Source: Psammoneis japonica
Taxonomy: Eukaryota
Reading direction: 5' to 3'
Length of the DNA stretch: 63,044 bases
Assembly: GCA_008632985.1 (NCBI GenBank)
Contig: QPGO01000309.1
Location: 1 to 63,044 of the forward strand
The position numbers were made by a program, and so were the translations under genes. The notes under the pieces are model-generated. The model did not search any database. It was not told the DNA's origin and saw nothing but the letters and a program-made list of their open reading frames with translations. Positions 1-63,044 of the stretch are shown here, in pieces; the first letter of the stretch is position 1; each line of letters begins with the position of its first letter.

Positions 1-2064
1 CTTTGGTTGGTGCATCAGTGTGGCAAGTTTGTGCTTCTGTGTGATGCAGAAGTTTTTGTCACCACAGGTGGATTGAGTTTCTGTGGAGCTGTTTTGGTTC
101 CCATTGCAGTTGAAAATTTTCTGTCATGGATGGGCCTTTTGAAAGACTCCCTTTGGGTGCAGTTTGGGCACAACCCAGGAGTGCTTTTGGAGCATTCTGA
201 GAATGGCAAGAAAACAGGAATGATGAAATGTGTTTTTTGTTGAACAGCATCTCAGTTTTGGAGCTGTTGGAGAGTGTCATGGACCCCACTTGGTGTCAAT
301 CTGGCCTGGCAGTTGTGACACAACAGCATGACTCACAGCTGCCGCAGCTCAAAACTGTTGAGGCCATTGTTTTTCTTAGAAAAAAGGAAACCTGTTTTGG
401 CAGGTGTGCCTTTTGGCAATGTGTCCATCAAATCCACACAAGTTTTGCACTGCTGTGCCACACTTGGGCAGTTTCAACAGCAGCACGGTCACAGCGGCAC
501 ATCATCCACCCCAGCGGCTGATTGCATGGCTCCAAAGTTGACTCTCAGCATGAATCAGTGCATTTGAGAACATTCTTGGAATGCTGTTTGGAGCACTTTT
601 GGAGCAGCTTTGGTGCAATCTGCAAGAGAATCTTCAAAAAATTTGCTGCGCACAAACAGTCCCCCCAAAGGGGGCTTTTTTTGGTTTTGGCACTTGGAGT
701 CATTTGGCAGGGCTTGAATTTGAGATGGAGCATTCCTCAAAAAGTTGAGGGTGAGAGGGTCATGAATGACCCAACTCAAAGTTCTCATCACCAGGATTGA
801 AGCAAGCTTGGCACAGGTCCGCCAATTGCCACGTGAATGATCACGCAAAAGGCGCAAACCTTGAGGATGGATTTCTTTGAAACAGACACAAAAAACATCC
901 AGCACCATTCAAAATGAGATTTGTTGGGTTCTTCCTTGGCAAAAATGCAGAAAATTCAAACTTTTGCAAAATCAACAGAGGCTGAAGCTTTGGAAAGACC
1001 GCACTGTTTGAAAATGAGGGAGAAAACAAGTGAAAATTTGATTTTTCCTGCATCCCCCTGGGCTCCCCTGCTGGTCATTGTGTGGCATGGATTCAAAATG
1101 GTTTTGTGTGCTTGCGTGTGTGCATGCCACATTCCACCACATGATGCAGCAGTGGAGGCGCTGAAGAAAAGACTCAAGACTTTGACCATGGCAAGCAAAT
1201 CATTTGTGGCAGTGTCAATCTTGATGGTTGAGTGGCAACCACATCTGAACAGTCTTTTCAAACCCCATTGGAGGCATGTGGTGCAGTGCTTGCCGCTTGA
1301 ATTTTTCCTTCAGATGTGTTTTTCCCACCCACTGATTCTCATGCATTTTTGCTGTTGTTGCCTCCAAGTCAGCTGAAGGTTGTGAGTGCCTCTGTGACCA
1401 AAGCACATGAAAGGTTTGCACACTCATTGAATGATTGCTTCAATGAAAGCAGTGGTGTGGATGGAGTCACCTCCGGACATTTGTGCTGGTTGGTCATGTG
1501 CCGCCATGCTTTGTGCTTTTGTGTGGCAACAAAGTGCCACCAACTCTGGCAATTGCTCAGTTGCGACTTCATCAATGTTTTGATTTGAGAGGTGAGTGCA
1601 CATGAAATGTCTTGATTGATCCCATGGGAAGGATGTCAGTGGGTGATTGCCACTCAAGCTGTCAATTGTTGCACTTTTGCCAACCCTTTTTTTGCTCTCT
1701 GTCAAAGTTTCTGCCGCAGTTGCATCGACCGGCAATGCCATTTCCATGGCTCAAGTTGGAGTGCATCAGATGCAATTTTGCCTGTTCACTCTTGCACACA
1801 TGGAAGATGACAGGGTGAGGTGCTGTCTGGATTCTTGAGGTGGTCCCACATGAGCAGAAACAAACACAGATCCACCTGGAACTGGCTTGCCAGCTGCTCA
1901 ACTTGACAACCATGTCTGCTCAGGCTGCAAGAAGATTCATGACATGTTGTCATCAAACCAACAGTGCCTCATCATGAGTCCCCAAGTGCAGTGATTGTGG
2001 GTGATTGGAGCTGAAAGCAAAGTGCAACAAGTGTTTGAGATGCTGGAAGCTGTTGGGCTGGAGG

Positions 2065-2460
2065 ACTTTGCTTTGTTTTCACAAGGTGCTCTGGAGTCAG
2101 TCAACTCCACTTCAAGTTGGTCTGGAATCAGTTGACTCTGCTTTGCTTTGTTTTCACAAGGTGGTGGTCTGGAATTGGTTGTTTCCACTCCACTTCATTT
2201 CAGCAGGGTGGTCTGGAATCCATTGGTTGATGCATCACTTCACTTTGTTTTTGCAAAAGTTGGTCTGTGAATTGGTTGATTCTGCTTCACTTTTCATTTG
2301 TGTGAGGTGGTCTGGAATGTGTTGATTCCACTTCAGTTTGTTTTTGCAAAAGGTGGTCTGGAATGATTGGTTGATTCCTCCACTTTGTTTTTGCATGAAG
2401 TGGTCTGGAGTCTGTTGGTCAATGCTGCTTTGCTGCATTGGAAAACAACCAACTCTGCTT
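2065..2460. repeat. Degenerate tandem repeat, roughly 8 units of about 45-50 bp
   Basis: Recurring core (g/t)tggtctggaat..ggttgattc..cactt...tgtttt. Confidence 0.7.
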
Positions 2461-2819
2461 TGTCTCATGTTTGCAAGGTGGTTGGAAATCCATCGGTCCA
2501 TGCAGTGTCATTGCATTTTCATGAGTTGGGCCAAAAACAACCATGTCTGTTTTGCCTTGTGTTCAAAAGATTTTCATTTGCAAGTTGGGCTGAAAACAGC
2601 CATTTCCACCTTGCCTCATTTTTGCAAGTTGGGCTGAAAATGGCTGACTCTGGGTGTGATGTTCAGACACCTGGAGCTGGCATCACAAACAGCAAAATGG
2701 CACAACTGCAATTGATTGATTTTTGCAGCAAGCACCATGTTGGTCTCATGGCTGCTCCCGCAATTGCTGAGTTCTTTGTGTGTGTGTGTGTGTGTGTGTG
2801 GTTGGGTGGGTGGGTGGAT

Positions 2820-3225
2820 GATGGGTTCCAATTCTGGGTGGGACTCCGTGTGACATTGGGCACGCAGAATTCTGCGTGCAAGCTCCGCAGCAAATTTGTT
2901 GAGCAATGAAAATGTGAATGATCGCCAACAGAAAAAGAGGCAATTTCATGAACGTGTCTCCTCCTTCACACTTGCAGCACTTGCAGCACATCAATGACAG
3001 TTTGCATGGGTGGGTTCTGCAGACATTAAAGAACACACCCAGCACATTTTCATTGTCACAAATGTTGAAAATGGAAAGCCTTTGGCTTTGCAAGACAGGA
3101 AGTGTGAAACAATTTCATAGAATGTCACACGCAACCATCTGCGTGCACGACATGTGGCGCGATCCAAAAAACTGTTGATGTCACAGCTCAGCAGTGCGAG
3201 GTCCCACCTGGAGCTGGAATGCGTT
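2820..3225. mobile_element. MITE family copy A, inserted in a (TG)n/(TGGG)n tract
   Basis: Ends gatgggttccaattctgggtggga ... tcccacctggagctggaatgcgtt. Internal homology to copies at 19107, 19277, 46498 and 51324. Confidence 0.85.
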
Positions 3226-3329
3226 GGGTGTGGGTGTGCGTGTGGGTGTGTGGGTGTGGGTGTGCGCATGTGGGTGGGTGTGCGTGTGTGTTTGCAAACA
3301 TTGACCAGAGCAGCGGCCCATTGAAGACA

Positions 3330-3922
3330 AGTCATTGGACAATGCACATCTGATCACAGGGGTGCAACATGTTGGCTGAGCACACAGACATTCAAGCAAC
3401 GGCACAATGACAAACACAATTGGATGAATGACTTGTCACTCAGAGGTGACATGTGGAGGGGGTTCATGAAGGCAGCGAATCATGTCATTGACCCCCAAGC
3501 ATGCCTCCCACACCTGGCAAACCACAACAGGTTCAAGGCTCTGCAAGCGCAAGCATGGGCTGACTGCATGAGAGCCCACAACCAAGCACCTTCTGCGCCA
3601 GCTGCCTTCAATGGGGACATCATTGCCAAGTGGACAGCGTGCCTTGCAGAGTTGGAGCAGCTCAAGGCAGCAGATTCAGATGATGATGCCAATGCTGCCA
3701 CAGAGCTTGGGCACCCACATGATTGGCCAACCTTCCAGGAGCTGTTGGAGACCAAGCTTTGCCGCCGCCGCAATGCTGTTGCAGGTGCCCCACTTGTCTG
3801 CTTGACTGGGGAGCATGAAGCTGTCACCACGGACATGTTGACTGCCACCTGTGGCGCCATTGACAAGGACCTTGTTTACACCACCCAATTGGATAGAGCC
3901 CAGCACTTGCAGGACCACAAGC
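3330..3922 (+). pseudogene. Decayed gag-like fragment of an LTR retrotransposon (probably Copia/CoDi type)
   Basis: ORF 3424-4020 contains DWPTFQELLETKL..GAPLVCLT, resembling diatom Copia gag W..F.E.L....L...G.PL.Y with Y>C. Truncated by a MITE end at 3923. Confidence 0.45.
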
Positions 3923-3990: not shown

Positions 3991-4953
3991 ATGTACATGC
4001 CCCTTTTCGCAGAAAAATAAATTTTTTATCCTTTATACAACAACGAATATATTTCATTAAATTGATCACATTAATGGCTTGGAAGTAAAACAAACAGAAT
4101 AAACTCGAACAAACAAACAGCCAAACCGGCCATGGCTTTCAGTGACCATGACGGCCCACTTTTTTCAGCCTTGTGGAAAATTGAATGTCATGACCAGGAT
4201 CTCCGTATTTGATATAGTCTGTGTCATCAACAACAATAGTGAAAATGCTTGTTGAAGGCTGCAGCGCGGCACAATAATGCTAAATCTGTCAACAACAACA
4301 ATTGAGCCTCAATTGTCTCACAATTTGCCTCTAAGGACCATTTCTTTTCAATTACCATGTATATTTCCTCAATATATTCGAATGATTCAAGTGTGTCAAT
4401 CGTTTATGCCTTTTAAACCGTGAAAAATGGTCCGAAGTCGACGCCATTGCGTGGGCTGAGCTACACTTCTTCTCACGTCGTCCTAAACTTATTAATCAAC
4501 GTATGCTTTATTCGATCCGTTGAGTGTAACTAGTATTTGCGTATTATAGCAAAATGTTAATTATGCTATGTTAAAGACTATATTTATATGTGTGAATAAT
4601 ATTTTACATGTTTCTTGCTACATGAAGGCACACATAAATCGCTCATCGGAAAAATTGAAAATTTGGGGAAAAAAAACGAACGACGACGACTCCTCGCATC
4701 AGCGCCTCGATCCTGCTATTTCACTTTATTCTTTTTGCAGCTCTTGTGCAATTACTCTCTCGATTCGTGTGCCATCTATCGTTGGCTTCCATTGCATTGG
4801 CGACTCATTCTTTTGTCACGTTTCAACGCAACCACACACTTGCACAAACAGCCCATTCTCTTCTTGCGCCTTTTGTGCTGCACCTCTTTGTTGTGCGTGT
4901 GTGCGTGGACGGGTTCGCACGTGATGCAATGCTCGGTGTACGTGATTGTATCA

Positions 4954-4962
4954 ACAGCAGCA

Positions 4963-4992
<30 letters not shown>
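4954..4992 (+). repeat. (CAG)n microsatellite immediately upstream of the LRR gene ATG
   Basis: cagcagcag... run ending at gcATG 4993. Confidence 0.9.
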
Positions 4993-4994
<2 letters not shown>

Positions 4995-7900
4995 GCAACT
5001 CGAAGATGCCTGCAGCCGTCTCCGGGAAAATGATCCCACATTGACAGTGCTCGATCTACGCCGCAACCAAATTGGTGACGCCGGTGCAATTGCGCTCGCA
5101 GCGGCACTCCAACACAACACTACATTGAGAAGGCTCTGTCTTGGCCTCAACCAAATTGGCAACGACGGTGTAAAAGCGCTCACAACAGCTCTCAAAACCA
5201 ACACGACATTGGAACAGCTGGAACTTCACGGCAACCAAATTGGCAACGACTGTGCAAGAGCGCTCGCCACGGCTCTCAAAACCAACACTACATTGAAAGT
5301 GCTCCATCTTGGGAACAACCAAGTTGGTGACGACGGTGCAAATGCGCTTGCAACGGCACTTGCAACCAACGCCACGTTCAAAGAGCTCCTTCTTTCCAAC
5401 AACCAAGTTGGTGACAACGGTGCAAGAGCGTTCGCAGTGGCACTCGAAACCAACACGGCATTGGAGTGTCTCGATCTTTGTTACAACCAAGTTGGTGACG
5501 ACGGTGCAAGAGCGTTCGCAGTGGCACTTGAAAACAACGCCACGTTCAAAGAGCTCCTTCTTTCCAACAACCAAGTTGGTGACGATGGTGCAAGAGCGTT
5601 CGCAGTGGCACTCGAAAACAACGCCACATTGAAAACGCTCGATCTTTCCAACAACCAAATTGGTGACAACGGTGCAAGAGCGTTCGCAACGGCACTCGAA
5701 ACCAACACGACATTGACACGGCTCAATCTTGGCTGCAACCAAGTTGGCAACGACGGTGCAAGAGCGATGCTGCAAATGCTGAAGCAACACAATCGGAGTT
5801 TGATGAGCTTGAACTTGCTTGGCGACATGTGCATTTCCGAAAATTTGAAAAACAAAATTGATGCGTTGGTGAAGCACAACATGAAAAAGACTCGAAATCC
5901 GACGCCTCGGCCATTGACTCGTACGTTGTTGCGCTTTTATGGTCTGAATGCTTTTATGGTGTGATTTTGTAAAGTACATGACAATGCAAAGAGTGTTTCT
6001 GACGCGACCTTTTCCCATTTTTATCTCTTTTTTTTTTAGGAGAAGAGTGCGCAGAGAAGAATTTGCCAATTTCAGCTCGCAACGGCGACTGGGAATGGCT
6101 GGCGGGACTCCTTGATGATGCTGTAAATGTGGGTGCAGTTGACAGTGACGGCTCGACTACACTTTACCATGCCAGTCAACAAGGAAAAGTGGAATCCGCA
6201 AAAATCTTAATGGACCGCGGAGCAAAAGTAAATGCCAGATGTAAAGGAGGAAAGACGCCTCTCATGGCTGCATCCAAGAATGGGCACGATGAGGTCGTCC
6301 AGCTGCTTTTGGATCATGGAGCTGATGCCGATCTTAAAGTCGGCCTGTTTCGCAAACAGAGTGCGCTCGACATGGCCGTACGAAAAGGCCATTCCCAAGT
6401 AGTTTCGATTCTGAAATAAGCGCGCAAGTCGACGCCAAAACCAGGAAAGACGAAAGGCAATGACACAGTGACTCGTACGTTGTTGTGTATTTTTTTTTTC
6501 GTTTTACCCCCGGAATGCCACTGTGGGGTTCTGTAAAGTGTAAAAATGCAAACGAGTGTTTCTCACACGACCTTTCCTTGATCCTCCTCATCTCTTGTTT
6601 GTAGGAGAAGCAGAAGAGCAACAACATTGTGAAGAAGAGGAACCACGACGACTTGCGCAGAAAGTCACAGAGCAACAACAGCGCCAAGAGGCGGCGGGAA
6701 AATTTCGGCTCAAGCAGGAAGCAGCTGAACAACTTCGCCGTAAACAAGAAGAGGAAGCGGGAAAATTGCAGCGTGAAAGCAAAGCGGCAGACAGTCACCT
6801 TGTCCAAGAATAGCAGCAGGAGCCAATAATTCGAAATCCATCGCCTCGGCCACAAATGACTCGTACGTCACTTTTTCGGTGTTGCTACCGGAATGCTGTG
6901 GTGTGACATTGCAAAGCATGAAATGCATGTGGTTTTTCTCATGCTGGCTTTCTATTTCTGTCGCTTTTTATAGGAGAACAAGTCGATGCGAGACGAGAAC
7001 AACTTGCACTCGACGAAGTCTACCGCCGTCTTCGGGAAAATGATCCCACATTGACAACGCTCGATCTTTCCAGGAGCGATATTGGCGACGCTGAAGCAGA
7101 AGCGCTCGCAGCGGCACTCAAGAACAACACCACATTAGAAGAGCTCATTCTTGAAGACAACCAAATTGGTGACGACGGCACAGCAGCACTCGCAGCGGTG
7201 CTCCAAACCAACTCCACATTGCAAGTGCTCTATCTTGGCAGCAACCAAATTGGTGACGAAGGTGCATGCGCGCTAGCAACGGCACTCGTAACCAACACCA
7301 CGCTGCGAGTGCTCCATCTTGGCGACAACCGAATTGGTGCCAACGGTGCAAAAGCGCTCGCAGAGGCACTCGAAACCAACTCCTCATTGCAAGATCTGTA
7401 TCTTCGGAACAACCGAGTTGGTGACAGTGGTGCGAAAGCGCTCGCAACGGCACTCAAGACCAACACCGCATTGCGAGAGCTCGATGTGTGGAGCAACCAA
7501 ATTGGTGACGATGGTGCCAAAGCATTGCTGCAGACGCTTCAACAGCACAATGGGACTTTGACTTACTTAGGATTGAATAGTGACGATGGCATTTCCGATG
7601 ATTTGAAAAGCGACATTTCGGAAGTAGTGAAACACAACGAGTACACAACTCGAAATCCGCCGCCTCGGCCAACGGTAACTCGTAAGTTGCTTTTTGGGTT
7701 TTCGGTTTGACAAGCAGACGAACGTAATGACTGATTCTTCTCATATCTATTTCATTGTCTTTTAAACTTGCATTTGTGCGATCGTTGAAGAGTCCCATCA
7801 TATCTTAGGCTTTCAGCCCAACACCACGTTGGATCGGAGCGGTTATCGGACAAGTTGGCTATCTCCGGGGAATGCTGAACTCGATGTCGGCGATTTGTTG

Positions 7901-9961
7901 GTGAGCTCCGCGACAGCGGAGTCCAGAGGGCCCTCTGGCTCTCCCTCGAAAGACCTCCCATTATTTTTTCTTTCTCACACTTCTGGGATAGACAGCGGCA
8001 AGGAGGAAATCATTCGTCCAACCTACTGGTTGCTGACGAAATATCTAGAGCTTCCGGTCTTTTTTGACGAAGCCATCCCTGTTGGGCAAGATGTGTTGTC
8101 ATACAGGAGGAAGGCGGCCAGCGAATGCACACATGCGATGGTCCTCCTGTCACCACGCTATCGGCAACGTAGGTGGTGTGTCAAAGAACTCAACACTTTC
8201 ATGAAACGACGGCAGAATGCTGAACGCCCGCTTTCGTTGGTGCCTGTTACATGGGGTTGGGAGACGGATACGGGTAGGCGAGACAGCTTGGAAGGTTACG
8301 CAAATCAGGTTCGGGACTTGGCTTGGATTCAGCCAGAAACCCCCGACGCTGCGCTCTTCCTTGTCAATACCCTTTGGCCCCTTCTAATCCAGCTTTTCAA
8401 TCTCTCCGTGGAAGCGTCGATTGAAGATTTACTTGTTCAGTACGCGGAAGAAAACAGAGGAATATCTTCCATCCCGCTCAGTCTAGAAAGTTTTGTTCAA
8501 GCCCGGTTCCGTTTCGCAAGAAAATGGACCAAGCTGCCATCTCCGGTTACCCCAAGAGTTGCATGTGGTGTGGCTCTTTGGGGGGATTTCAAAATCATTC
8601 TCGTGGGTGGTCAGAGGAGGAAGAAAGCAGCTGCTGTTACCGAGTCTTTGCAGGCACTCCGATCAGTCGAAGTGTTTGATGCGACCACGCAAGAGTGGTC
8701 TGAACTTCCGAGCCTCCAAACTTCTCGATATCACTGCTCCGCGGTAGTGGTGGGAGAGTTTTTGCATGTGTTCGGGGGCTACGATGGCTCGGTCACCCTC
8801 AATGATATGGAGGTTTTAAGCCTTCGAGGTATCGATAGCCAATTTGAGGTGGTCAACGGATATCTGCCGGAAGGACGGCGCCAAATGGGTGCTCTTGGAT
8901 TCGAGGAATCAGTTATGCTATTTGGCGGACGTTTGAACCCTTTCGGAACCAATGCATGGCTTGCGCAGGTTCGAGATCGAACTGTGGCGGCTCTAGACAG
9001 CTTGACCTTGGGGCGCGCTTGTCCCGTTGTTTTGCCACACAAAACCGATGTTTTCGTAATTGGAGGGCAAGGCGAAGACGGGACCTGGCTCAGCTCGGTT
9101 GAAGTCTATGATATTCTCACGAATAGTCGTAGTAGCAAGAAAATACCAAACATGCCAATAAGCGGAGAACGCGTTCTCAGTGCGTACGTTAAGGAGGAGG
9201 ATGGCAATAGTGCGCTTGTCATTCATTTCGAACGAGGTGTCTATACTTTTGACTTTCGGGAATCAACCTGGTCTTCAGAGGTAGAACAAAAATGGTGGGG
9301 CGGTGGAAGAAAAATTGACCAATGCGTTTATTCTGATGCACAAGCCTGTCTCGTTTGCGTGAATGCCGCTGCGAATCTTGAGTTGTTTAAGTTACCAGAA
9401 GAGATCCATCAAGATGACTTGTACTCAACGGCGCTCATCGGCGGTAGCCCCAAACCTGTTGGTGAGCTGAGCGTTGATTATGTCTCCGACCCAGGCAAGG
9501 CGTGGCCCATGAGGAAGAGCAACTGCCGCCCGTTGGTCTATCTTGCTCATCGTGGGCCGGATGCGAAGAAGGATATCGCTGGACCGATTTGCGATCATCT
9601 TGAAAAGATTCACGGCGTTGATGTCTTCTTTGACGAGAAGAAAATGCCAATCGGCGACGACAAAATGCACACGCTCGTTTCAAAAGCACATGAGTGCACT
9701 CACGCCTTAGTGATACTTTCTCCAACATTTCGTGAGAGTGAATACTGCGTCAAAGAGCTAAATACCTTTATGGCTCGCTGGGAGAAAGGTAACGGGTTCC
9801 GCCTCTTTTTGTCTCTGTGGAATGTTGACGATGTAGATGGATACGCCCCGGTGGTGAACGACGTGATCGGTCATAGAGTTGCGGGTGCAAACAAGGTCCA
9901 CTACATAGTGTCTTTGTACACCAAGCTCGAGGAGTTTCTGCCAGCTACCACCAACTGGTAA
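4993..9961 (+). CDS. Five-exon LRR(RI/NLRC3-like)-ankyrin-coiled coil-LRR-TIR-Kelch-TIR gene. Exons 4993-5920, 6040-6474, 6605-6862, 6974-7681, 7809-9961. In-frame stops in exon 2 (TAA 6417) and exon 3 (TAG 6811).
   Basis: GT..AG introns join all ORF-track pieces in frame (all phase 1). 28-aa LxxLxLxxNQIGDxGA repeats. Ankyrin GKTPLMAASKNGH. TIR motifs FFLSH..VFFDE..LSP..WCVKEL and YLAHRGPD..VFFDE..LSP..YCVKEL. Kelch GG/W repeats. Confidence 0.85.
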
Positions 9962-10624
9962 GCACAAACAACGCAGCAACTTCGATGTGTCCGTTCTGAA
10001 CAAAGAATTGAAAAAGCGAACCAATCGGGCCATCAGGTTCCTCTGTGGGAAGAAGAAGAGGGCAGCACCAGTCTTGATGTTCGCATTCACGGTATGGTAT
10101 GTTGTATCGTTTTCTGGTAAGTCACAGCAATCACTCCTTCTTAGCGTTTATCGATTCGGTTGCCGCTAATTCATCCTGCTACATGGCATTCTCAAAAGGT
10201 AGAGAAAGGCATTCCTGGTGGATATTGGTAATCCGGGAGATTCAATTTTCAATTTGCCAAAGGTAAAAATGTTCCTGGTTGATTTGTACACTGGGAGATT
10301 TTGAGAATGGAGTGGGACTTGTCCAAGAGATTGACAGAGGCGGATGCCGTTCTGACCACGGGAGAGTTGGATAATTGAGTGCCATTTGCGGTTCTAGTTC
10401 GCCACTCAGACCAAACTCGTGTCATCTGAGAGTTAAAGGGATGACGGTGTATTTCTAAACAGACAGGTCTGCTGTAGCTGCTGACAACGCTGTGTCCGTT
10501 TTCCATCTACCTTGTACGTAGTGGTGTGGCCTTGGTTTAGAGCAAGCTTTACGCTTTTCTACGTAAACACGAAATAGCTGTTTCCACGTGGAATTCTACT
10601 TGTCTTTTGGGCTGTAACAATGGC

Positions 10625-15340: not shown

Positions 15341-15577
15341 ATGTCGGATAATGACTCGGACATCCGACCGGACACATGACTCCTCCACCCAAAAACTAAT
15401 GTCACACCGTCAAATAACGTTCCCGAACACCTGCTTTCCGTTGTCGTAAATTTGTACCAAAACGACACCAACGCGCACCGCACCTCTCACGCCTTTCGAG
15501 CAGATTACCCGGAGGCCCCATGGCGAACGCTACCCGCCAAAAATACTAAGAGGTGGTTGCTGATCATCATCATCATC

Positions 15578-16772: not shown

Positions 16773-17099
16773 ATTTTGAATAGTGAAGAAATTAAAAATA
16801 TATCAAAATGGCGGCCGCAGCACTCTACACACTCGTGTCCAAGCAGAGACAATCTACAAATCGGCAGTCAGAACACTCGAAGAAAACCATGAATGTGACT
16901 GGCTTTAATATTGCTAGTATTGTTGGTTGGTTCTCTCGCTGAAGAACCTCTCAAACAGTGTTAGTTACAATGATTTCTCAATCTAACGGTTGGTGCGAAC
17001 GGCTACGGTACACCGCACTCACGCTGTATTTTAACTGTAGGCTCAGTCAAGGCAGCTCCTGTGCACGTAGCACTGTTATAGCAAATTGCCGAACAAGTA

Positions 17100-52650: not shown

Positions 52651-53138
52651 GGCAGAATTCGTACTGTACCACAAACTAGCTGTAGATTTCTACAGGAATT
52701 CTTTCCATGTTGAACTTGAACTTGACTTGTCGTAGAATCTTGTCGTACGTACAGCTTCTGTGAAGACATACTAGGTTTTACGGATGATGGACAGAACAAT
52801 GTTCTCATTGCACTTATTGAACTGGTCATCATGACGTCATTACTGACAATTGTTCCATGATTTTCACACGTTTTGATTGGTTGGTTGCTCAGAGGTGATG
52901 TTCTACTCGCCTGTGCAGAATTCATCCACACATACTCCGTACAAAGAATGTCCATCGATCGGCGCACGTTGTCGACGCTCTCTTGTCACAAACTCAACGC
53001 TCACAGTGCGCTGTCACGCAATTCTCTCTACTAGTCGGATGCTTTTCCGCCACCCTCTAGTAGACAAAAGCTTGTGATTTTGAAACGATCCAAGCTATCC
53101 CCAATTATTTGTGAAGGATCTTTAGCCGCAGCATCATC

Positions 53139-54465: not shown

Positions 54466-56340
54466 TTATTGCTGTTCCTTTTCACTCTTGTCGGCGGATA
54501 ATTTCCGTACAGCAACATTTTGGTCGTCGTCCTTGGAAGCATGATGTGGTTTGAGAATGCTTCGACTAAACAAATCGTATTGATCATGAGTCGCCGCATG
54601 ATGGAGTAACGTTTTCTTTTCCACATGATAGTCTCCCTTGACAATACCCACGGTATTGTCCATGACGTCGGTAGGGATCGTACTTTGCAACAAGGCACTC
54701 ACAAAGGTTGTCTTTGTAGTAGTAGCATGGAGTTCATCTTGTGCTGTCGTAGTAGTTGCATCACACGGAGCTGCCGTTTCCAAATCACCACCGCCACTCA
54801 TGTTGCTGCATTTACTCACATCGTCACCATTGTTTCGATAATGTTTTCGTCCGAGTCTCTTTTTAAATTGCGGTTTCTTCATTAACGCATTTCGTGCCGC
54901 CACGGCTTCGGCCGAATAATCGGAATGCGGAAAGACAAAAATATGAACAATGGCACCGACAAACATTTCGATACAAATCAAATAATCCTGAAGTCCCTTG
55001 GCAACGTCTTCGGACGTCCATTCATTGTTGTAATGTGGAATCATGCCCGCTTGATAGAGCATGGATATTCCCACACTTTGCCACCATGTAAAGAATACCA
55101 ACGCCTTGACCGATAAGAATTTACCGACGGGTCGAATGGGAGACAGCTCATTCTTGGTCGCATAATAAAAGAAAATCAAACAATACAGAGCCCAACATTG
55201 CGATGTATTGGTCAAGATACAGATATACAGATATCCCGACGTGAATCCAAAATCCCCCTCCTTGTAGAGTCCATGCAATTCCAAAATCATGACAAAGACA
55301 CTCGAGACCGCTTTGAGCAAGACGTATTGCAAGACACCAAATTTGCACTTTACAAAAAAGGGACTCGTCCATTCGACTGTACCACTCTTGTTGGTTTTGG
55401 GTTGTCCCATGAGCCACGGTTTGACACACCATTGCAATCCCCACATGTGTACACCACGGGTCGGTGACTTGTCTTTTAATAGCAAAATCAAGGCCTCTTG
55501 TCCACCCAAAACTTCAATTAGAAACTGCAAAAAGTTGTAAAGCACATAGGCTTCATAACAATCTCTTAATGTCTCAATATAGATTGCAAATTCGTGAAAT
55601 CGCAAACACAACCACGATTCCAAACTGTAAATGGGAACCATCCATAATATGCGAACAATGTAGCATTGAATCTGAGCTTGATTGTAATTGGCCAAATGCA
55701 TGACGATGCCATACATGCTGATTGGAAATCCCAACAACACAAAGGCACCCGCAGAAAACCAGGCAATCAAGTGTGGGTCCGTGCTATAGTAGACATAATA
55801 TAGTTTTTGAATAGCAGCAGAATTGAGTTATAAAAGTAAGTAAAACATTACAAGTACGCATACAAACCATCCTATACCATATATACACACATCATGTCAT
55901 TACTCAGCCACTTACCCGTTGTTTTTTAGTTCATACGAATACCACACTACACACAGTACCATGCCCACGAGCGAAAACCAAAACGTGAGTTTCGCTAGTA
56001 TATTCATGAGTTGTGACATACTTTGATAACAGGAATCGGTGGGTGTAGGACATTTTCGAAATATAAACCGGACCGTATTTTTCAGAGCTGCCAGTGGTCC
56101 ATTTCGTTTTTTCAAAGGAAGAATCGATTGTTGAGCATCATCGTCTTCGTCTTGTAGCGAACGCGTGCGGCGCAATCGTGGTTCTGTTTCTAACGTTACC
56201 ATGAGCGGTGTCATGAGCAAGTGTTCTTGTTCTTCATCATCATTAGCATTGTTGTTGTTGTGAAGGGGTTGTGTTGTTGTTGTGGATGGTAATGAGGTAG
56301 TCATGCTGTTGTTTTTAGGATGACTAGAGGATAACGCCAT
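54466..56340 (-). CDS. TMEM184 / organic solute transporter alpha family protein. Intron 55784-55915.
   Basis: IVRILWMVPIYS, RDCYEAYVLYNF, GVLQYV, KFLSVKALVFFTWWQ and QDYLICIEMF are family motifs. Splicing gives NNG|TDPHLIAW. Confidence 0.92.
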
Positions 56341-56746: not shown

Positions 56747-58865
56747 TCATTCCTGCGCCATTACAGCCATCACGTTTGCAATGCTGCGACGAACGGTTGC
56801 CGTGAGATGATGGTTGTTGCCCAAGACGGCTTCCCAAATCTCAAGAGCCTTGCGATATTCCACCAAGGCTTCTTCAAACTTGCCCAGGTTTTCAAGAGTC
56901 GTGCCAATGTTGTTGTAACTTGATGCCGTGTTTGGATGCTTCTCGCCCAAGACGGTTTTACGAATGGCAAGAGCCTTGCGAAGTTCCACCAAGGCTTCTT
57001 CAAACTTGTCCTGATTGTTTAGAATTGATCCAATGTTGTTGTAACTTGTTGCCGAGTCGGCATGATTCTCGCCCAAGACGGCTTCTCGAATGGCAAGAGC
57101 CTTGCGACATTCCACCAAGGCCTCTTCAAACTTGCCCTGATTTGCAAGAGTCGTGCCAATGTTGTTGTAACGTGTTGCCGTGTCGGGATGATTCTCGCCC
57201 GAGACGGCTTTGTCAATTGGAAGAGCCTTGCGATATTCCACCAAGGCTTCTTCAAACTTGCCCTGATTTTCTAGAATCGATCCAATGTTGTTGTAACTTG
57301 TTGCCGCGTGCGGATGATTTGGGCCCAAGACGGCTTCTCGAATGGCAAGAGCCTTGCGATATTCCACCAGGGCTTCTTCAAACTTGCCCTGCTTGTTTAG
57401 AATTGATCCAATGTTGTTGTAACTTGTTGCCGTTTCGCATGATTCTCGCCCAAGACGGCTTCTCGAATGGCAAGAGCCTTGCGATGTTCCACCAAGGCTT
57501 CTTCAAACTTGCCCTGATTGTTTAGAACCGATCCAATGTTGTTGTAACTGTGGGCCGTGTCGGGATGATTCGGGCCCAAGACGGCTTGATAAATGGTAAG
57601 AGCCTTGCGATGTTCCACCAAGGCTTCTTCAAACTTGCCCTGTTTGTTTAGAATCAATCCAATGTTGTTGTAACTTGTTGCCGTGGAGGATGATTCTCGC
57701 CCAAGACGGCTTGACAAATGGCAAGAGCCTTGCGACATTCCACCAAGGCGGCATCGTGTTCTCCATTTCCATCATAAATTACCCAATGTTGTTGGCAATG
57801 AGCAAACTCGAGTCGTTCTTCATTTGTGGAACCACTCCCGTCAAGTACTTTTGCTTGGTCCGTCACAAACCCATGCAACACGTCTCGTACCCATTTCCGC
57901 AAATAAACATTTACACGGTGGTTGGTGGCATTACATCCTCCCTCTTGATCTTCAAGAAGACCAATTATGAATTTGCGATCCGCCTCCTCGCTCGCCTCTC
58001 CATTTTCAACTCTTGTGTTGGATAGTGTTTCGTAGAGAGAATCAATGCGCCTTGCACCTTCCTTTTTCCTATCAATAATAAGAACGTTCACGAGACTCTC
58101 CTTTTGATGCGGTGGCATGGCTATAGTCACGTTGCAGTCCTCACCCTTTTCGATAGCAGTAACTATTTCAAAGATGCACCATACTCGAGAAAGGTATGCT
58201 GGCTTTTCCCACGGCGACATCATGCAGACGATTCGCCCAATACCCGTCACGCTGGTATAAAACTCCTCGACAAGGTCTTGAGTTGTTACTCCTCTTGCTA
58301 CATTGTGTTGGTTGACACAAAAGCAACAAATCCAAAAATAGGTTCGTTTGGGATCGAGTTGATTCGTTTCACAGAACCCAACGAGTGTATCGATAATGTC
58401 CCCAACCGTGTATCTAAAGAAAAAGTGACGGAACTCACTAGTCATTCACATATGCACAGAAATGGCGCTTGTCTCAGACAACAAATACACAAACAGATGT
58501 ACTTACTCCCATGTATAGCTCAGCATATGAGTAGCATCTCCGACATTATCCTCACCCTCCAACGCGTGCACAAACGCCGCTCCTTTTCTGCCAGTAATGG
58601 GACACGTCACGTTGGCACTACTTTTACGAAGAAAGCCTTTCTTTCGTCCACGCACATTTTCTAAATCGTGTATAGTAGAATGGCGACCGAGTTTCCGTTT
58701 GTACGAACGAATTTCCTTCAACAATCGATTCTGTAGGTAATCCACACTGACACCGCGGTACTTTGGATTGCCCTTGAGCTTTGGGTCCTTAATTTCCAGC
58801 GCTTTTAATGGAGTCGGCTCTCTTTTAGTGGTGGGTTGCGTGGTGGTGGATGCTGTACATCCCAT
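56747..58865 (-). CDS. HET/TIR-like N-terminal domain plus about 7-8 42-aa TPRs (kinesin-light-chain type). Intron 58414-58506; about three frameshifts between 57430 and 57800.
   Basis: MGCTAS N-terminus; LSYTW|EY, YFWICCFCVNQH, YLSRVWCIFE; 126-bp repeats HPxTAxSYNNIG..QGKFEEALVE.RKAL. Confidence 0.8.
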
Positions 58866-59149
58866 TATGACAAAAGGAGCAGCGCAGTTCCGTCACTTCA
58901 GCAAACGCAACACACAACTTCTTCTTTTTGTGTTTTCTCTTTTCTTGTGTTTGGTGTTGCCTGCGAGATGCACGGATCGAATTTTTGATGTGTGAGTAGA
59001 CTTCTACGGCAGAAATGTACCAGAGTGAGTCGAGTCACGGGGTACCTTTCTCCTGTCCGCGACTGACGGTCTTGCCTCTCGTTTGACACCACAAGCTTAG
59101 CTTGGAGCGGAAGCAACAGCAACAGTAGAGACTTTAACAACACCGCGAT

Positions 59150-62100
59150 GCCATCATTCTCCTTGTGTGAGAAATGAGACTGCATTGGAATTGTTGGTGC
59201 CACTTGGTGAAAAATGATTTGAAAATTCGGCATTCATCGGGAAACCAATCTCGGCACTGTTGTTTTCTCTCTGCTGGCAGCATCAGCACACAATGCGGAT
59301 GTGATGAATTTCAACCAACTGTGCAAAGAACACATGCAATTGCACATGTGCATGGCTTGCTGTTTTGCAGCATTGATGAACAGAGCAAGCGGCAACAAAC
59401 TGCAATGCCAAAAACAATTTTGGGCAAAATCTCACTCGTCACAAAAACATCCATCAGCAAGTCACCACATCGCAGCAGATGTGAGAGCTGACCAATCAGT
59501 TTCATTTCTTTTTCCGCAACTGATCAATTGCATTCATGACAAAAATGCCCATCAGAAAATCAGTTCCTTGCAGCTGTGAGAGCTGTCATCACCAATCAGC
59601 TTCGTCTCTTTTTCCGCAGCTGATCAACCGCGTTCTTCGTGATTGGGGTGCTGCAAAGCAGATCTGCCGGCACTGCAGTGTGGTGGCTGCTGGCACTCTT
59701 GGCTCTCTGCTGCACTGCTCTCTGGCAGAGCTGGCTCTCTGGTGGCTGGCAGAGAGCAGTGAAACAGACTCCACTGTGTCAGCTGCTCCAAGAAGTGTCC
59801 ATCTGCCTCTGCAGGAGCTGCGACCAGCCAGCCGGTTTGGCAACAAAAAGATGTGCAAGCCAGAATGAGCAACCCACTGCCGCAGTGTTGGCAACACCTC
59901 ATCAACTCCAACAGGAATTCTGTTGTGGTCTCTCTGCAGAAGATGTCCTCTGTCAATCCAATGGCAAATTCTTTGCCACACTGATGGACTTCATTGTCAA
60001 CAGTGCCTTCTGTTGAGCTGCAATCCTCTCACTTGCAGGTGCCATCTTTGGAGCATCCTTCAAAATGCCTTGATGCAACAATTCTTGAGTGTGCCATTGC
60101 CACAAATCTTGGAGTCATTTGTTTGCAACTTGTGCGGTTGACTCGAGATGCTTGTCAAGAGGTCATGGAAGCTGCAAATGCTGGTGTTTTTGAGCACGGC
60201 AGATTCAGTGGCAATTCATGCACAGTGTGGGTGCTGGACTTGGGTCGCCATTCTCTGTCAAACTCTGCTGCATGGTGTGACAGGCTTTGATGGCTGCTCT
60301 GCATTGACATGCCACCCAAACACTCTTTTGTTGAGTGTGTGGGTTGACTGCATGATGAGGAGAGAACAAGGAGAAGCAGGCACTGCTCTCGCTGCTTGTT
60401 GTTGATGTGCCTTGAGCCTGTTGCATTGCGCGCCATGGCACTCTCATTTTCGCACAAAAAAATGCATGTCCTTGTCCATGTGTGCTCTTGGGGTCAGGGT
60501 TGGCTCATGGTGCAGGGCACGGCCATCAAGCATGCTTGCATGCTTGCGGTGTTCAAATGTTGGCTTCCATGCACTTGACAACCTCAGCTGAGCTGGGGTG
60601 TGCAGCTGGGACATGTGGAGACAGCTCTGCTGGCAAGGAAGATGCCCTCTCCCAGTGCTCACCAAGCTGGGAAGCTGGGCCAGAGGGTGGGGACAATCAA
60701 GCTGTCAACATCATCTCTTTTTTCTTCTTTTTTTCTCTTTGGAGCAATTGCCGAAGAGAGTGGAACAGAGCGGACACACGAGCTTGGTTTGGCTTTGCCA
60801 GTGTTTGAGAAATCCTGAAACAAATGGCCAGAGTGAGAGACAGTTGCCTCTGCCTTCTGGGGAACACCCTGGAAATGAGGCCAATTTTGTGGGAGGGAAC
60901 ACCTGAAAGGGCCAAGGGGAGGGGAAAACAAAAAGGAGAAGATTGCGACAATGTGCGGCAATGACATTCGGGTGGGTGTGCTGTTGGTCCCATGCATGCT
61001 CCAGGCCAGCTGGCCATCCATCCCACATGACGGCTTGGAAGTGAACGCACAGTGTGGCTGGCAGTTGGATGGGCAACAGCTGCAAGATGCAGGGTGTGTG
61101 TGGCTGTGCCAAGTGTTGACAAGACAACAAGTGACAGTCACCTCTTCCAGCTCCTGCAGAATGGTGAGAGAGGTGCCTGGAGTTGCCAGCAGATCTCCCC
61201 TCATTTTTTAAGCAGCCCCTGATTTTGCCGGAGCACTGCTCATTGCACAACCTTTTGAAGAGAGTGCCCCAGCCTTGTCATTGACAACAGGGCCTTTGAA
61301 GGCTGGCTTGGCCTCCCCACATGTGACCTCGTCAACAACTTTGTGCCAAGTGCCGAGCACTTTGCAGAGCTTTCTCAATGATGGTGGGTCTCAAACTGCC
61401 CAGCTCTCCAAGAAGCAAGCCACACCCTTCACACCACCTCATGTTGCTTTGGCTTTTCAACACACACAACACAAACAGTGTGTTTGACAAGTTGGCTGTG
61501 GTCGTCACCCAAGCTGTGCAAGCATCTTGCCTCCTTGTGCACAAGCGCCGCACTGTCGCCCTGCTTTGTTGTTTCTGTTTGCCTGCATCCTGGAACTTTG
61601 ACCCCAGTGTTTTTGCCAAGTCAAGTGTGCACATGGCTCTTCAAACCAAATGGTTGGTGCCAGGATTTGGCAGGCTTTCAGCTGGGAAATGCTCCAGTGC
61701 CCTGCAGCAGCTTGGTCATTGTGCACAGCTCTGCACCGTCAACTCTGCTCACATGTTTGCATGATGCATTTTTGCTCTCACACCACACAGCTCACAAGAA
61801 CAGCAGCACTCATTTTGGCACTTGCAATGGCCCCTGGGTGCGGCAACTCATTTGCTGTGTGGGCAGAGAGGAGGGCACAAAGCAGTTGTTTTGTCTGCCA
61901 CATGTGTTCTCCCTGCAGCGTCATCTCACAACAAACCACACATGATGACAGGTGGTGCCGGATGTGCTGTGTGGTGCTTGACCAATGTTGCTCTTGTTCT
62001 TGAGCCTTTTTTGCTGCAACATTTTTCCACACAGATGACAAGGCCAAAAAATCATCTTTGTTCTTGGCAGAGAGAGCAGGCTGGTTCTGTCCCCCCCAGC

Positions 62101-63044
62101 AAAAATGAAGCCTGTCAAGCATGATTTGCCACCTCTTCACAGACTCCTCCTTTGGCTTTGGTTGTTCAAAAATTGCAGCACAAGTGCATGCAAAAAATGT
62201 GGTTTCTTGCAGGTGCCCACCTTGCAGCTTTGGAAAAGCCAAAGTTGCCTGGAGAGGCGCAGCTTTGTTGGCTGGGCAAAAAGGCCAGCACTTTTGAACT
62301 TCTGGCGCCTGTCGTGGCTGCTGGGGCTCTTTCTTTCAGCTTTGTTGCTCTTGGAGCGGCTGTCACTGTGACTTGGTGAAGACTCTTGAAGGATGTTTTC
62401 TTGCTCTTTTGTGTGTGGGAGCGAGCCACTTTTCAAACCCTGCAAAGATCTGGCGCTTGTTCTGTGTCTGCCTTTGTCATGAGACAATGGACACCCAGGT
62501 TGGGCCCATCTTTGGAGCTGCTCTTGGCTGTCTTGACAGCATCAACGAAGCCCATGATGGCACATGGGGTTCAAAGCTGAGCAGCGACGGCCCAACAAGC
62601 CAAAAGTGATTTTCCAGAGCCTTGGCTCAGTTGTTGAGTGCCCTGATGTTCTGGCTGTCAATGCGCATTCGCCACACAAGAATCTGGGCTGCTTGTCTGA
62701 CCATGGGGAGCGTGGGCACAGCGGCACTTCCTTCCATTGCCAAAATGTCCTTGGAAGACTTGCCCACAGAATGATCTGAAGACAATCATGAGGAGTTGGC
62801 AGCTGTTCTTGGCACTCTGTTCTTCTTGAAATCGAACATTGATGAGTGCACGGTGGCGGGCGTCATGAGACAAAAATGCAGTCACAACAACTCATCAGTG
62901 TGCAGCACTCAACAGCATTGACACATCTCCACAATTGCATCAAATCTGTTGACATGCAAGTCTTGCAGTGGCAACACTTTCGACAAATGAGCCTCTACAA
63001 AGGTTGCCGTGTGTCTTCTGGGCGGCTGCTTTCTTGCACGCGGC
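59150..63044. other. TpA-depleted decayed domain 8, running off the window end
   Basis: TA loss; short imperfect repeats accaatcag..ttttccgca.ctgatcaa at ~59490-59630. Confidence 0.8.

Follow-up and report, generated by a model that had tools for sequence, protein, structure and literature searches.

What removed nearly every TA dinucleotide from about half of this stretch of diatom DNA, in blocks that alternate with gene islands? Two-state segmentation of the window (i.e., the whole stretch of DNA that was analyzed, 63,044 nt, with a total of 1390 TA) separated 31.7 kb in nine blocks, carrying only 61 TA (observed/expected ratio, o/e, 0.03), from 30.6 kb of gene islands carrying 1318 TA (o/e 0.60), which corresponds to 0.0019 versus 0.0430 TA per base. 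The TA-poor blocks, which have no strand assigned, are as follows, with block 7 given as two pieces:

1-3876, TA-poor block 1: 3 TA; o/e TA 0.01, CpG 0.22, TG 1.75, CA 2.02
10695-15348, TA-poor block 2: 15 TA; o/e TA 0.05, CpG 0.32
18770-23604, TA-poor block 3: 13 TA; o/e TA 0.04, CpG 0.38
26537-28844, TA-poor block 4: 7 TA; o/e TA 0.05, CpG 0.54
35132-42310, TA-poor block 5: 8 TA; o/e TA 0.02, CpG 0.22
45934-49289, TA-poor block 6: 10 TA; o/e TA 0.04, CpG 0.32
50750-51338 and 51698-52661, TA-poor block 7: 3 TA in all, with an intact transposon between the two pieces
59136-63044, TA-poor block 8: 2 TA in 3909 bp; o/e TA 0.01, CpG 0.28; continues past the window end

Per block, TA o/e ranged from 0.01 to 0.05, as compared with 0.49 to 0.92 for the islands between blocks, and 500-bp windows held 0-2 TA inside the domains versus 11-42 TA in the islands. 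The longest TA-free run measured 2650 bp (377-3027), a gap whose probability is ~exp(-114) given the 0.043 TA per base of the islands, and the next ones measured 2074, 1787, 1668, 1335, 1331, 1331, 1210, 1177, and 1137 bp. Domains almost lacking TA, with sharp transitions, had been described in the initial annotation, and our segmentation edges fell within ~170 bp of the limits proposed there. The domain given as 50740-52650 is indeed TA-poor, but an intact transposon, visible as 359 bp of TA-normal sequence, divides it in two. One other TA-poor piece, at 5172-5921, encodes a tandem array of LRRs and has normal CpG; it was excluded from the phenomenon. Counted on both strands, stop triplets amounted to 62 TAA, 31 TAG, and 1459 TGA in blocks versus 587 TAA, 498 TAG, and 1153 TGA in islands; TA-free blocks thus keep TGA as their sole stop codon, resulting in many long false open reading frames (ORFs).

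CpG was likewise depleted in these blocks (o/e 0.33 versus 0.99 in islands, i.e., 0.0196 versus 0.0527 CG per base). The initial annotation was silent on this second depletion. Between islands and blocks, the combined loss of TA and CG (0.0742 per base) was close to the gain of TG and CA (0.0687 per base; 0.2207 in blocks versus 0.1520 in islands), so that CA and TG reached block o/e values of 1.75 and 1.78, respectively, and GC content was 0.491 in blocks versus 0.462 in islands. We then employed forward simulation, in which island DNA was mutated under different models and scored on the 16 dinucleotides observed in blocks. The best model combined TA transitions with CpG decay (RMSD 0.0082, r 0.956), and poorer fits were obtained for TA transitions only (0.0126), TA transversions plus CpG decay (0.0132), CpG decay only (0.0167), and no change (0.0205). 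For the contexts ATAA, ATAT, TTAA, and TTAT, the gain of TG/CA did not match the loss of TA, indicating that islands reflect the ancestral sequence imperfectly or that later changes occurred. In high-copy repeats, TA o/e is already 0.03-0.19 and CpG is still 0.45-0.78, and these repeats are presumably younger; the left part of block 3, for instance, consists of high-copy transposon copies with CpG still at 0.45-0.70.

The direction of change can be read from two repeat families with members in the blocks. The first is a transposon family with one intact copy and five old ones:

51324-51713, no strand assigned: intact, non-autonomous 390-bp transposon bearing terminal inverted repeats, inside TA-poor DNA
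2820-3225, + strand: old TA-purged copy (DNA-run depth ~30,570 in bin 2669-3335, versus ~100 for single-copy DNA)
19277-19673, + strand, and 19671-19903, - strand: two old copies, inverted
46499-46893, - strand: old copy, partly purged, with few TA left
26990-27550, + strand: oldest and most diverged copy

A target duplication of 4 bp (TGGG, located at 51320-51323 and 51714-51717) flanks the intact transposon, and its piece 51339-51697, with 27 TA in 359 bp and a CpG o/e of 1.69, represents the family in its unmutated state and served as reference. That an intact insertion lies within a block indicates that the process is not instantaneous. Polarized cells were defined as the TA sites of the intact copy in each of the 5 old copies, restricted to well-aligned parts. 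The 57 TA cells of the old copies comprised 23 TG, 18 CA, 5 TA, 6 AA, and 5 other outcomes, i.e., TG or CA at 41/57, and in the same alignment CG was kept in 32/70, CA in 38/47, and TG in 36/49 cells. Upon strand folding, A>G changes affected 48/117 cells in which A follows T (T[A]) versus 49/293 in other contexts. One "TA" site of the intact copy reads AA in 5/5 old copies, and reference copies may carry private changes. As a control, a 2.5-kb duplicate pair located in an island kept TA in 138/221 cells (0.62) and CG at 0.61, with 193 transitions versus 187 transversions.

The second family is a tRNA-like repeat:

35097-37600, + strand: array of 8 tRNA-like units

Its first unit (35097-35168) lies on the block edge and retains 3 TA, and inner units carry TG or CA where the first unit has TA; the "tRNA-Ala TGC" calls in this array represent TGT-A changed to TGC-A. 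A:T transitions in this family (strand-folded) affected 17/34 cells in TA versus 20/297 elsewhere. Across both families, A>G at A[A], C[A], and G[A] amounted to 0.04-0.21 versus 0.41-0.50 at T[A], where the ceiling is 0.5 because one hit destroys a TA; for A[A] alone, the values were 0.18 (transposon) and 0.04 (tRNA-like) as compared with 0.41 and 0.50 for T[A], respectively. As the in-window copies of the transposon (6) and the tRNA-like repeat (8) share ancestry, these polarized cells are not independent. The TA>TG and TA>CA differences between homologous copies noted in the initial annotation therefore recur in two families, and the excess of changes in TA over other A/T contexts, which it had named as a test, is borne out by the counts above. 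Its view that the transitions are TpA-specific and distinct from both ascomycete RIP and CpG decay alone is supported by composition, modeling, and polarized counts. Apart from the tRNA-like units, an Rfam search returned nothing above threshold, and a permissive Rfam scan of 12500-15400 gave one match at chance level.

We also considered the sequence context of the changed sites. At 5 asymmetric transposon sites, TG/CA outcomes lay on the TAC side in 20/20 cases, and at GTAG/CTAC sites the TAC side rather than the TAG side had changed in 16/16 outcomes; symmetric CTAG/GTAC/ATAT sites gave mixed outcomes at 4/5. In the tRNA-like family, 8/13 outcomes were on the TAC side. Over whole blocks, TGC/GCA rose from 17.8 (islands) to 34.0 per 1000, the TAC>TGC ratio was 1.05 versus 0.47 for TAG, 0.18 for TAT, and below 0 for TAA, and surviving TA were richest in TTAA (18/61). 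A trinucleotide fit gave RMSD3 values of 0.00327 for a C-favored, 0.00342 for a uniform, and 0.00390 for a G-favored model. Thus, a preference for the A of TAC is a tendency that is weak at block scale and, as TA is its own reverse complement, is equally a preference for GTA. ADAR-type editing, for which the favored neighbors are 5'-U and 3'-G (5'UAG, as given in PMC10661471), was rejected, because the G-favored model fitted worst of the three and changes lay on the TAC rather than the TAG side. When the order of TG and CA was examined with a runs test, mean z was -1.1 in blocks and -1.2 in islands, i.e., no strand clustering, and strand-coordinated mutation was rejected on the basis of this similarity.

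The blocks had been described as repeat domains, and this holds for part of them. With island DNA at a depth of ~95-115 in a public DNA run (X1), some TA-poor bins are very high-copy (~3,200-118,700) and other TA-poor bins are at single-copy-like depth (76-356); within block 2, 10673-12673 shows single-copy-like depth and 12674-14674 very high depth. A "repeat-induced" origin is therefore conjectural. Repeats that are old and diverged would appear single-copy by depth. Apart from the two repeat families, blastn and purine/pyrimidine-collapsed word matching with BLAST, the latter being noisy, detected no homology between blocks, and no further homology emerged when the DNA on either side of the 8-kb duplicate was aligned globally with tolerance for transitions. 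The idea that 10695-15348 and 18770-23604 are diverged duplicates was dropped. The initial annotation had also spoken of transposon ORFs, for which we found no backing: 178 stop-to-stop ORFs in blocks (90 aa or longer) gave 0 convincing Pfam matches and hence no transposon or viral domain, the only match being Med27 (E 0.008), and the longest ORF (284 aa, 38016-38867) looks non-coding (Atlas recognition 895). No deaminase domain was present among the window ORFs scanned with Pfam. A second run (X2, labeled "DNA?") behaves as cDNA, given that one of its contigs skips four GT..AG stretches; its depth was 6-1332 over island bins 4670-10672 and 15342-18676 and 0-15 in bins inside TA-poor DNA, such low cover not being evidence of silence. 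A third run (X3) was restricted to 14376-14498, in contigs of 31-81 nt from both strands. In metagenomes, 15 related diatom loci around the Ostalpha gene (109 kb) contained no TA-free run >219 bp; being short gene-rich contigs, these loci are uninformative on how widespread TA-free blocks are. A degenerate pattern for the terminal region of the transposon had 0 matches in the metagenome contigs.

The direction of change from TA to TG or CA, its restriction to blocks, its excess over other contexts, the lack of strand clustering, and one young insertion that is still intact are all shown by the data above. We consider it probable that these non-genic blocks of diatom nuclear DNA, which are partly high-copy, were hit by TpA-specific transition hypermutation that is likely enzymatic and directed at silenced targets. 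One base of nearly every TpA in the blocks would have been altered by a transition to give TpG or CpA, through a process that would work in place, over whole blocks, and on either strand at random; it would have run ~3-4 times faster than the decay of CpG to TpG/CpA in the same blocks and would by now be saturated. We infer that the blocks represent silenced chromatin and that the agent is an enzyme serving in defense, i.e., one that would disable foreign or mobile DNA. Most likely, this enzyme would be an ADAT2/TadA-type adenine deaminase acting on DNA (A to inosine, read as G) and preferring the A of T-A-C; a TadA/ADAT-like deaminase, already proposed in the initial annotation, stays the leading candidate, with the TAC preference as a weak hint. 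A more specific scenario, which we put forward only tentatively and regard as rather doubtful in its entirety, is that diatoms possess a chromatin-directed, TAC-preferring DNA deaminase derived from ADAT2/TadA, shared with chlorarachniophytes and acting in bursts alongside CpG methylation. Such an enzyme, being common to both groups, would be old within the SAR supergroup; action in bursts would allow a recent transposon to sit untouched in a purged block; and the deaminase together with CpG methylation would drive silenced mobile or foreign DNA to a fully TA-free state.

An ADAT2/TadA-like DNA adenine deaminase is favored over thymine oxidation at TpA, which is the main rival and which we judge unlikely. 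In that case, a TET/JBP-type dioxygenase would oxidize the T of TpA in silenced DNA (to 5-hydroxymethyluracil, 5hmU, and onward), and the modified base or its repair would yield T>C, giving the same TG and CA products. A>G after T and T>C before A result in identical sequence, and the attacked base (A or T) is inseparable from sequence because TA is palindromic. In kinetoplastid telomere repeats, base J is found on the T that precedes A, and 5-formyluracil mispairs with G, both in keeping with attack on thymine; against it, 5hmU pairs with A and is not known as a strong T>C mutagen. In dinoflagellates, 5hmU made by TET/JBP homologues is described as silencing transposable elements and favoring TA and TC (PMC11572971), whereas TC is spared in the blocks (o/e 0.89 versus 0.03 for TA). 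In addition, adenine deamination is favored by Mettrop et al. (bioRxiv 10.64898/2026.01.13.699255, 2026), whose preprint on Bigelowiella natans, a chlorarachniophyte, presents the sole case in which the process was measured.

We regard as very unlikely that no dedicated enzyme was involved and that a regional bias of repair or polymerases in heterochromatin raised A:T>G:C changes, e.g., through error-prone WA>WG synthesis of the Pol eta type, a bias in mismatch repair, or GC-biased gene conversion. Some features point this way, namely, a block GC content of 0.491 versus 0.471 in the best model, an AT step below and a GC step above that model, and a transition/transversion ratio in the old transposon copies above the 1:1 of the island duplicate. 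The specificity is nevertheless too sharp. TA and AA are both hotspots of Pol eta WA>WG synthesis, which should erode AA, and AA/TT are not depleted (o/e 1.34/1.29 in blocks versus 1.14/1.16 in islands); the Pol eta candidate of the initial annotation is thus a misfit. The A>G values in other contexts reported above stand against those at T[A], a TA o/e of 0.03 requires TA to be lost tens of times faster than it is created, and no dinucleotide specificity is known for GC-biased conversion.

It is highly improbable that mutation in place played no part and that the elements or foreign DNA were TA-free on arrival, as master copies or through selection against TA. At 6/10 informative transposon sites, all old copies share one same product, as expected for descent from a mutated master, and non-autonomous elements can spread without coding capacity. 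At the other 4/10 sites, however, both TG and CA occur among copies, as they do at sites of the tRNA-like repeat, and the same transposon family has the intact TA-rich and CpG-rich member described above. Moreover, the TA-free state crosses element ends and extends over single-copy-like DNA and several unrelated repeat types, which makes it a property of the block rather than of one element, and the TA-keeping tRNA-like unit sits exactly on a block edge.

Contigs of run X1 (31-mer-based, depth ~33-78 per contig) reproduce the TA-free sequence with 0, 0, and 2 differences over lengths of 994, 915, and 2565 nt, respectively: they are identical to the window at 1-994 and 1852-2766, and a single contig (10237-12801) crosses the edge of block 2 with 2 differences. 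At the sites inspected, none of the differences between X1 and the window fell on a window TA, and one was an adjacent CA-versus-TG pair at 15039-15040. X1 excludes an assembly error; it excludes a shared platform bias less certainly, as X1 may be the assembly's own sample. On some long-read platforms, base calling can err systematically when DNA is heavily modified. The chance of a sequencing or assembly artefact, e.g., modified bases in heterochromatin miscalled as G or C, is nonetheless practically negligible, as X1 repeats the TA-free sequence exactly or nearly so, block edge included, as the mass balance, context dependence, TTAA survival, and intact insertion are evolutionary features, and as the B. 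natans preprint (bioRxiv 10.64898/2026.01.13.699255) describes the same signature from Illumina data.

If confirmed genome-wide, TpA-only hypermutation of silent DNA would be known from a second organism, this diatom, and for the first time from a stramenopile, in a form far more extreme than in B. natans, ~half of the 63-kb stretch having been purged. With two distant hosts, the enzyme should be findable by comparative genomics, among genes that the two share and that relatives devoid of TA-free blocks lack. A natural A:T to G:C editor of chromosomal DNA would be directly relevant to base editing and would add a mutational arm to genome defense outside fungi and animals. Furthermore, repeat annotation, transposon dating, and neutral models in diatoms would have to allow for a context-specific rate exceeding CpG decay.

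Among known systems, ascomycete RIP is similar in that mobile or duplicated DNA is disabled by dinucleotide-specific transitions, leaving sharp blocks of odd composition between gene islands. RIP changes C to T mainly at CpA and so creates TpA, whereas in the blocks TpA is destroyed, CpA/TpG are created, and GC is raised (0.491 versus 0.462); a further difference is that the TG and CA products in the blocks show no clustering by strand. In addition, RIP is triggered by duplication, and the TA-poor DNA here is both very high-copy and single-copy-like. The decay of 5-methylcytosine at CpG gives the same TpG/CpA products and affects the same blocks; unlike that decay, the present process removes TA and is faster (5/57 TA versus 32/70 CG cells kept), and CpG decay alone is insufficient because it cannot remove TA.

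Deamination by TadA, ADAT2-ADAT3, or TadA-derived editors, i.e., A to inosine read as G, would fit the changes observed, and the modest T-A-C(-G) tendency agrees. The natural ADAT target, A34, follows U33, and early adenine base editors prefer "YAC"; no natural enzyme of the TadA/ADAT family is known to act on protist chromosomal DNA. For TadA/ADAT2, PMC10661471 gives a 5'-ACG motif and the substrate entry "RNA, DNA?", and one TadA variant is described as editing A within "YAC" (PMC13109818). Dinoflagellate 5hmU, from another SAR lineage, resembles the present case in its preference for the T in TA and its link to transposable elements; as described in PMC11572971, it is a marking and silencing modification, not a mutation.

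The closest likeness is that to B. natans. The initial annotation knew of no described system with this signature; in the literature that we searched, it is described only in the B. natans preprint, and we found no description for diatoms. Having been reported in 2026, the signature is thus not undescribed. According to that text (bioRxiv 10.64898/2026.01.13.699255), silent integrated viral DNA undergoes A:T>G:C hypermutation at TpA only, measured as episodic and at an ~1000-fold raised mutation rate; one target is silent and single-copy, low-TpA genes are enriched in reverse transcriptase and DDE domains, and an ADAT2-type adenine deaminase encoded by the host is proposed as candidate. Its long-term footprint is given there as clusters of 1-kb windows in which TpA is scarce and CpA+TpG abundant (Rho_TpA <=0.43, Rho_CpA+TpG >=1.52), and by these cut-offs 27/63 1-kb windows qualify here, forming six four-window runs, one two-window run, and one single window. 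Both cases show TpA>TpG/CpA transitions in discrete regions, with ordinary sequence outside them, as fixed differences here rather than as de novo events. The main text of the preprint mentions neither CpG nor trinucleotides, nor "diatom" or "stramenopile", and its supplementary mutation table may hold trinucleotide contexts; in the window, the signature comes with CpG decay and a TAC-side tendency. Relative to that main text, the link with CpG decay, the TAC-side tendency, and the lack of strand clustering are new. The targets differ as well, being small transposons, tRNA-like repeats, and unannotatable DNA here versus integrated viruses in the B. natans text, and so do the hosts, a diatom (stramenopile) versus a chlorarachniophyte (Rhizaria). 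With a TA o/e of 0.03 over 31.7 kb, as compared with the Rho of 0.45 given for the B. natans NCLDV region, the diatom blocks appear to be a second instance, from a different lineage and much closer to saturation.

Two-state segmentation of the window, which holds 1390 TA dinucleotides and ten TA-free runs of more than 1.1 kb, separated nine TA-poor blocks (31,670 bp in total, 61 TA, observed/expected ratio [o/e] 0.03) from TA-normal DNA, hereafter islands (30,624 bp, 1318 TA, o/e 0.60). With 0.043 TA per base, as in islands, a run as long as the longest TA-free one (2650 bp) has a probability of ~exp(-114). Blocks also differ from islands in CpG (o/e 0.33 versus 0.99, respectively), and their TG and CA o/e values reach 1.78 and 1.75. 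The initial annotation had described TA-depleted domains with sharp edges; our segmentation edges fall at most about 170 bp from those it drew, and the depletion is far beyond chance. Its domain at 50740-52650 is indeed TA-poor, but a 359-bp TA-normal piece lies within it. An extra TA-poor piece at 5172-5921 (2 TA in 750 bp) is a coding LRR_6 tandem array of 84-bp units, in which CpG is normal (o/e 1.11) and coverage by X2, a run behaving as cDNA, is strong; this array is TA-poor for a separate reason, i.e., a TA-free unit copied in tandem. Among 15 related diatom loci from metagenomes, which serve as a control for composition only, the longest TA-free run was 219 bp. No transposon or viral protein domain was recognizable in the blocks, and their many long open reading frames (ORFs) are a by-product of TAA and TAG loss.

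The largest conserved ORF of the window belongs to the Ostalpha family. We read the window as nuclear DNA of a diatom, because the best named relatives of this ORF are diatoms (Thalassiosira, Skeletonema, Cylindrotheca, Epithemia, and Striatella; mostly 50-75% identity). The islands carry the following genes:

about 4600-9958, plus strand: spliced LRR-ankyrin-LRR-Kelch-TIR gene (four GT..AG segments absent from an X2 contig)
42863-45370, minus strand: CHAT-STAND NTPase-Macro ORF, 835 aa (Pfam scan)
54466-55770, minus strand: Ostalpha family ORF
56750-58445, minus strand: TPR_10/TPR_12 gene, built of 126-bp repeats
gene islands: two DUF7796-like ORFs

With their TIR, CHAT-STAND NTPase-Macro, and TPR genes, the islands resemble an innate-immunity-type gene cluster. 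The DUF7796-like ORFs lie in a duplicate pair of ~2.6 kb (15548-18237 and 23595-26235, ~8 kb apart, 85% identical); TA-poor blocks flank both copies, and these flanking blocks do not align with each other. An unannotated 474-aa ORF contains a 484-bp tandem duplication (31636-32119 and 32120-32603, 100% identical), which either arose very recently or is an artefact of the assembly.

The TA-free DNA was recovered in X1, a public DNA run containing 0.89 of the sampled words of the window. More specifically, X1 contigs matched 1-994, 1852-2766, and 10237-12801 with 0, 0, and 2 differences, and the third match spans a block edge. The window may have been assembled from the X1 sample itself, the platform of X1 being unrecorded, and hence this run is not fully independent. 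These matches exclude an assembly error and make a base-calling artefact unlikely. Summed X1 depth was 76-356 at 1-2668 and 10673-12673, near the island baseline of about 95-115, and far higher in the high-copy block parts (about 30,570 at 2669-3335, 118,725 at 14008-14674, and 24,758-66,694 at 18677-20000). The high-copy part around the deepest of these bins extends over 12674-14674. The bin at 14008-14674 is the deepest (single-copy DNA, about 100), and the small run X3 is confined to 14376-14498 inside it, with contigs of 31-81 nt on both strands. This bin matched no Rfam family, and it may be a small-RNA source or an extremely abundant repeat. The X1 contigs at 1-2766 have a depth of 33-36, about half of the 60-78 found elsewhere; this may be a single-haplotype stretch, or the haplotypes may differ there.

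Two repeat families revealed the direction of change:

51324-51713: intact transposon copy, 390 bp, with terminal inverted repeats and a 4-bp target duplication
35097-37600: array of eight tRNA-like units

The intact transposon copy retains 27 TA and a CpG o/e of 1.69 despite its location inside a TA-poor block. Judged by depth, this family has hundreds of copies. Taking it as the reference, and using well-aligned parts only, we followed 57 TA cells through the five older copies, which lie in other blocks: 23 had become TG, 18 CA, 6 AA, and 5 other dinucleotides, and 5 were still TA. Retention in the same copies was 32/70 for CG, 38/47 for CA, and 36/49 for TG. Likewise, the tRNA-like unit at the block edge retains three TA where the inner units have TG or CA; finder calls of "tRNA-Ala (TGC)" correspond to a Thr anticodon TGT followed by A, mutated to TGC-A. 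With the spectrum folded onto the A-carrying strand (saturation is then 0.5, since a single hit destroys TA), transitions at T[A] affected 48/117 cells versus 49/293 in other contexts for the transposon (Fisher, 6e-7) and 17/34 versus 20/297 for the tRNA-like family (Fisher, 1e-9), both P values overstating independence because cells share ancestry. As a control, the 85%-identical duplicate pair of the islands, compared over 2.5 kb, kept TA in 138/221 cells, similar to CG (142/233), with 187 transversions versus 193 transitions. On this small scale, TA is mutated above other A/T contexts in both families; the absence of such an excess, which the initial annotation had named as evidence against its own reading, is contradicted. 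The edge unit that retains its TA (35097-35168, Thr TGT) is also the best-scoring tRNA-like unit (56.5 bits), and its position coincides exactly with the left border of a TA-poor block 7.2 kb long. tRNA genes are chromatin barriers in other eukaryotes, and by analogy this unit may mark the block boundary.

The fate of the lost TA was also assessed by mass balance. Relative to islands, blocks have 0.0411 fewer TA and 0.0331 fewer CG per base, and 0.0687 more TG+CA. When explicit mutation models were run on island DNA and scored against block dinucleotide frequencies, TA transitions plus CpG decay performed best (RMSD 0.0082, r 0.956), followed by TA transitions alone (0.0126), TA transversions plus CpG decay (0.0132), CpG decay alone (0.0167), and no change (0.0205). 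As a residual of the best model, GC steps in the blocks lie above prediction and AT steps below it. TGTG/CACA, the expected fate of former (TA)n tracts, is enriched in blocks (12.9 versus 5.5 per 1000), and (TG)n and GGGTG-type simple repeats at 2780-2830 and 3230-3300 flank an old transposon copy.

At 4 of the 10 informative transposon TA sites, both TG and CA occur among copies, and tRNA-like sites behave likewise; such mixed sites indicate independent hits after the copies had separated. The other six sites are uniform, which could reflect shared descent from an already mutated master. Five of these six are asymmetrically flanked (CTAC/GTAG, ATAC), and there all TG/CA outcomes (20/20) altered the A preceding C, whereas 4 of 5 symmetrically flanked sites (CTAG, GTAC, ATAT) are mixed (Fisher, 0.048, two-sided). 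Across the blocks, TGC/GCA doubled from 17.8 to 34.0 per 1000, and TGN gained per TAN lost, with the CpG share subtracted, amounted to 1.05 (TAC), 0.47 (TAG), 0.18 (TAT), and a value below 0 (TAA). Survival of TA is highest for TAA (0.10 versus 0.02 for TAC), and TTAA is the richest context of surviving TA (18/61). A C-favoured trinucleotide model fitted slightly better (0.00327) than a uniform one (0.00342), with A/T-favoured (0.00379) and G-favoured (0.00390) models behind; the tRNA-like family obeyed the TAC rule in only 8/13 outcomes. Together, these data are no more than suggestive of a T-A-C tendency. TG and CA products showed no strand clustering (mean z, -1.1 in blocks and -1.2 in islands), unlike RIP or APOBEC mutation clusters, which are strand-clustered.

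In the transposon family, TA was lost faster than CG (survival 0.09 versus 0.46; rate ratio about 3). The high-copy stretches 13501-15348 and 19001-20500, presumably younger, already have a TA o/e of 0.03-0.19 while CpG is still at 0.45-0.78; in single-copy-like stretches CpG o/e is 0.04-0.26. The intact insertion inside a block indicates that the process is not immediate, and it is either episodic or has stopped.

Polarised families, mass balance, and model fit support the core of the initial interpretation, a TpA-specific mutator targeted to blocks; the repeat dependence, action on transposon ORFs, and silencing that it also proposed stay putative. The sequence does show conversion of TA to TG or CA within blocks; as TA is palindromic, A or T could be the base attacked. 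In tRNA, the U preceding the edited A is described as universal. We favour adenine deamination by a putative ADAT2/TadA-type enzyme acting on DNA, because of this preceding U, the 5'-ACG motif given for TadA/ADAT2 in a review (PMC10661471), the YAC motif of a TadA variant (PMC13109818), and the TAC tendency of the present blocks. A TET/JBP enzyme oxidising the T of TpA is the main rival: dinoflagellate 5hmU silences transposable elements and reportedly prefers TA and TC (PMC11572971), but the blocks show no TC depletion (o/e 0.89). A Pfam scan of the window ORFs returned no deaminase or dioxygenase domain. ADAR-like (UAG) specificity does not fit, as the G-favoured model is worse and the TAC side is altered, nor does Pol eta-like (WA) specificity, given the A>G excess at T[A] over other contexts.

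Among known systems, RIP has the opposite effect on TA. The initial annotation knew of no described system with this signature, a statement overtaken by a 2026 preprint on mutation-accumulation lines of Bigelowiella natans (bioRxiv 10.64898/2026.01.13.699255); our literature and full-text searches found the signature described in that preprint alone, with no description found in diatoms. There, 231/302 nuclear point mutations lie in two integrated viral regions (~6e-7 per site and generation); of these 231, 230 are A>G or T>C changes, every one located on TpA, and the hypermutation is present in only 11/15 lines (bioRxiv 10.64898/2026.01.13.699255). The large viral region, present as a single copy, is transcriptionally silent, the genome contains 124 clusters of TpA-poor, CpA+TpG-rich 1-kb windows, reverse transcriptase and DDE domains are over-represented among low-TpA genes, and the candidate enzyme proposed is an ADAT2 homologue; the preprint's main text nowhere mentions diatoms, stramenopiles, CpG, or trinucleotides (bioRxiv 10.64898/2026.01.13.699255). 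With the preprint's cut-offs, 27/63 1-kb windows pass here, including six runs of four each. We file the diatom case as a second eukaryotic lineage with B. natans-type TpA hypermutation, in a much more advanced state.
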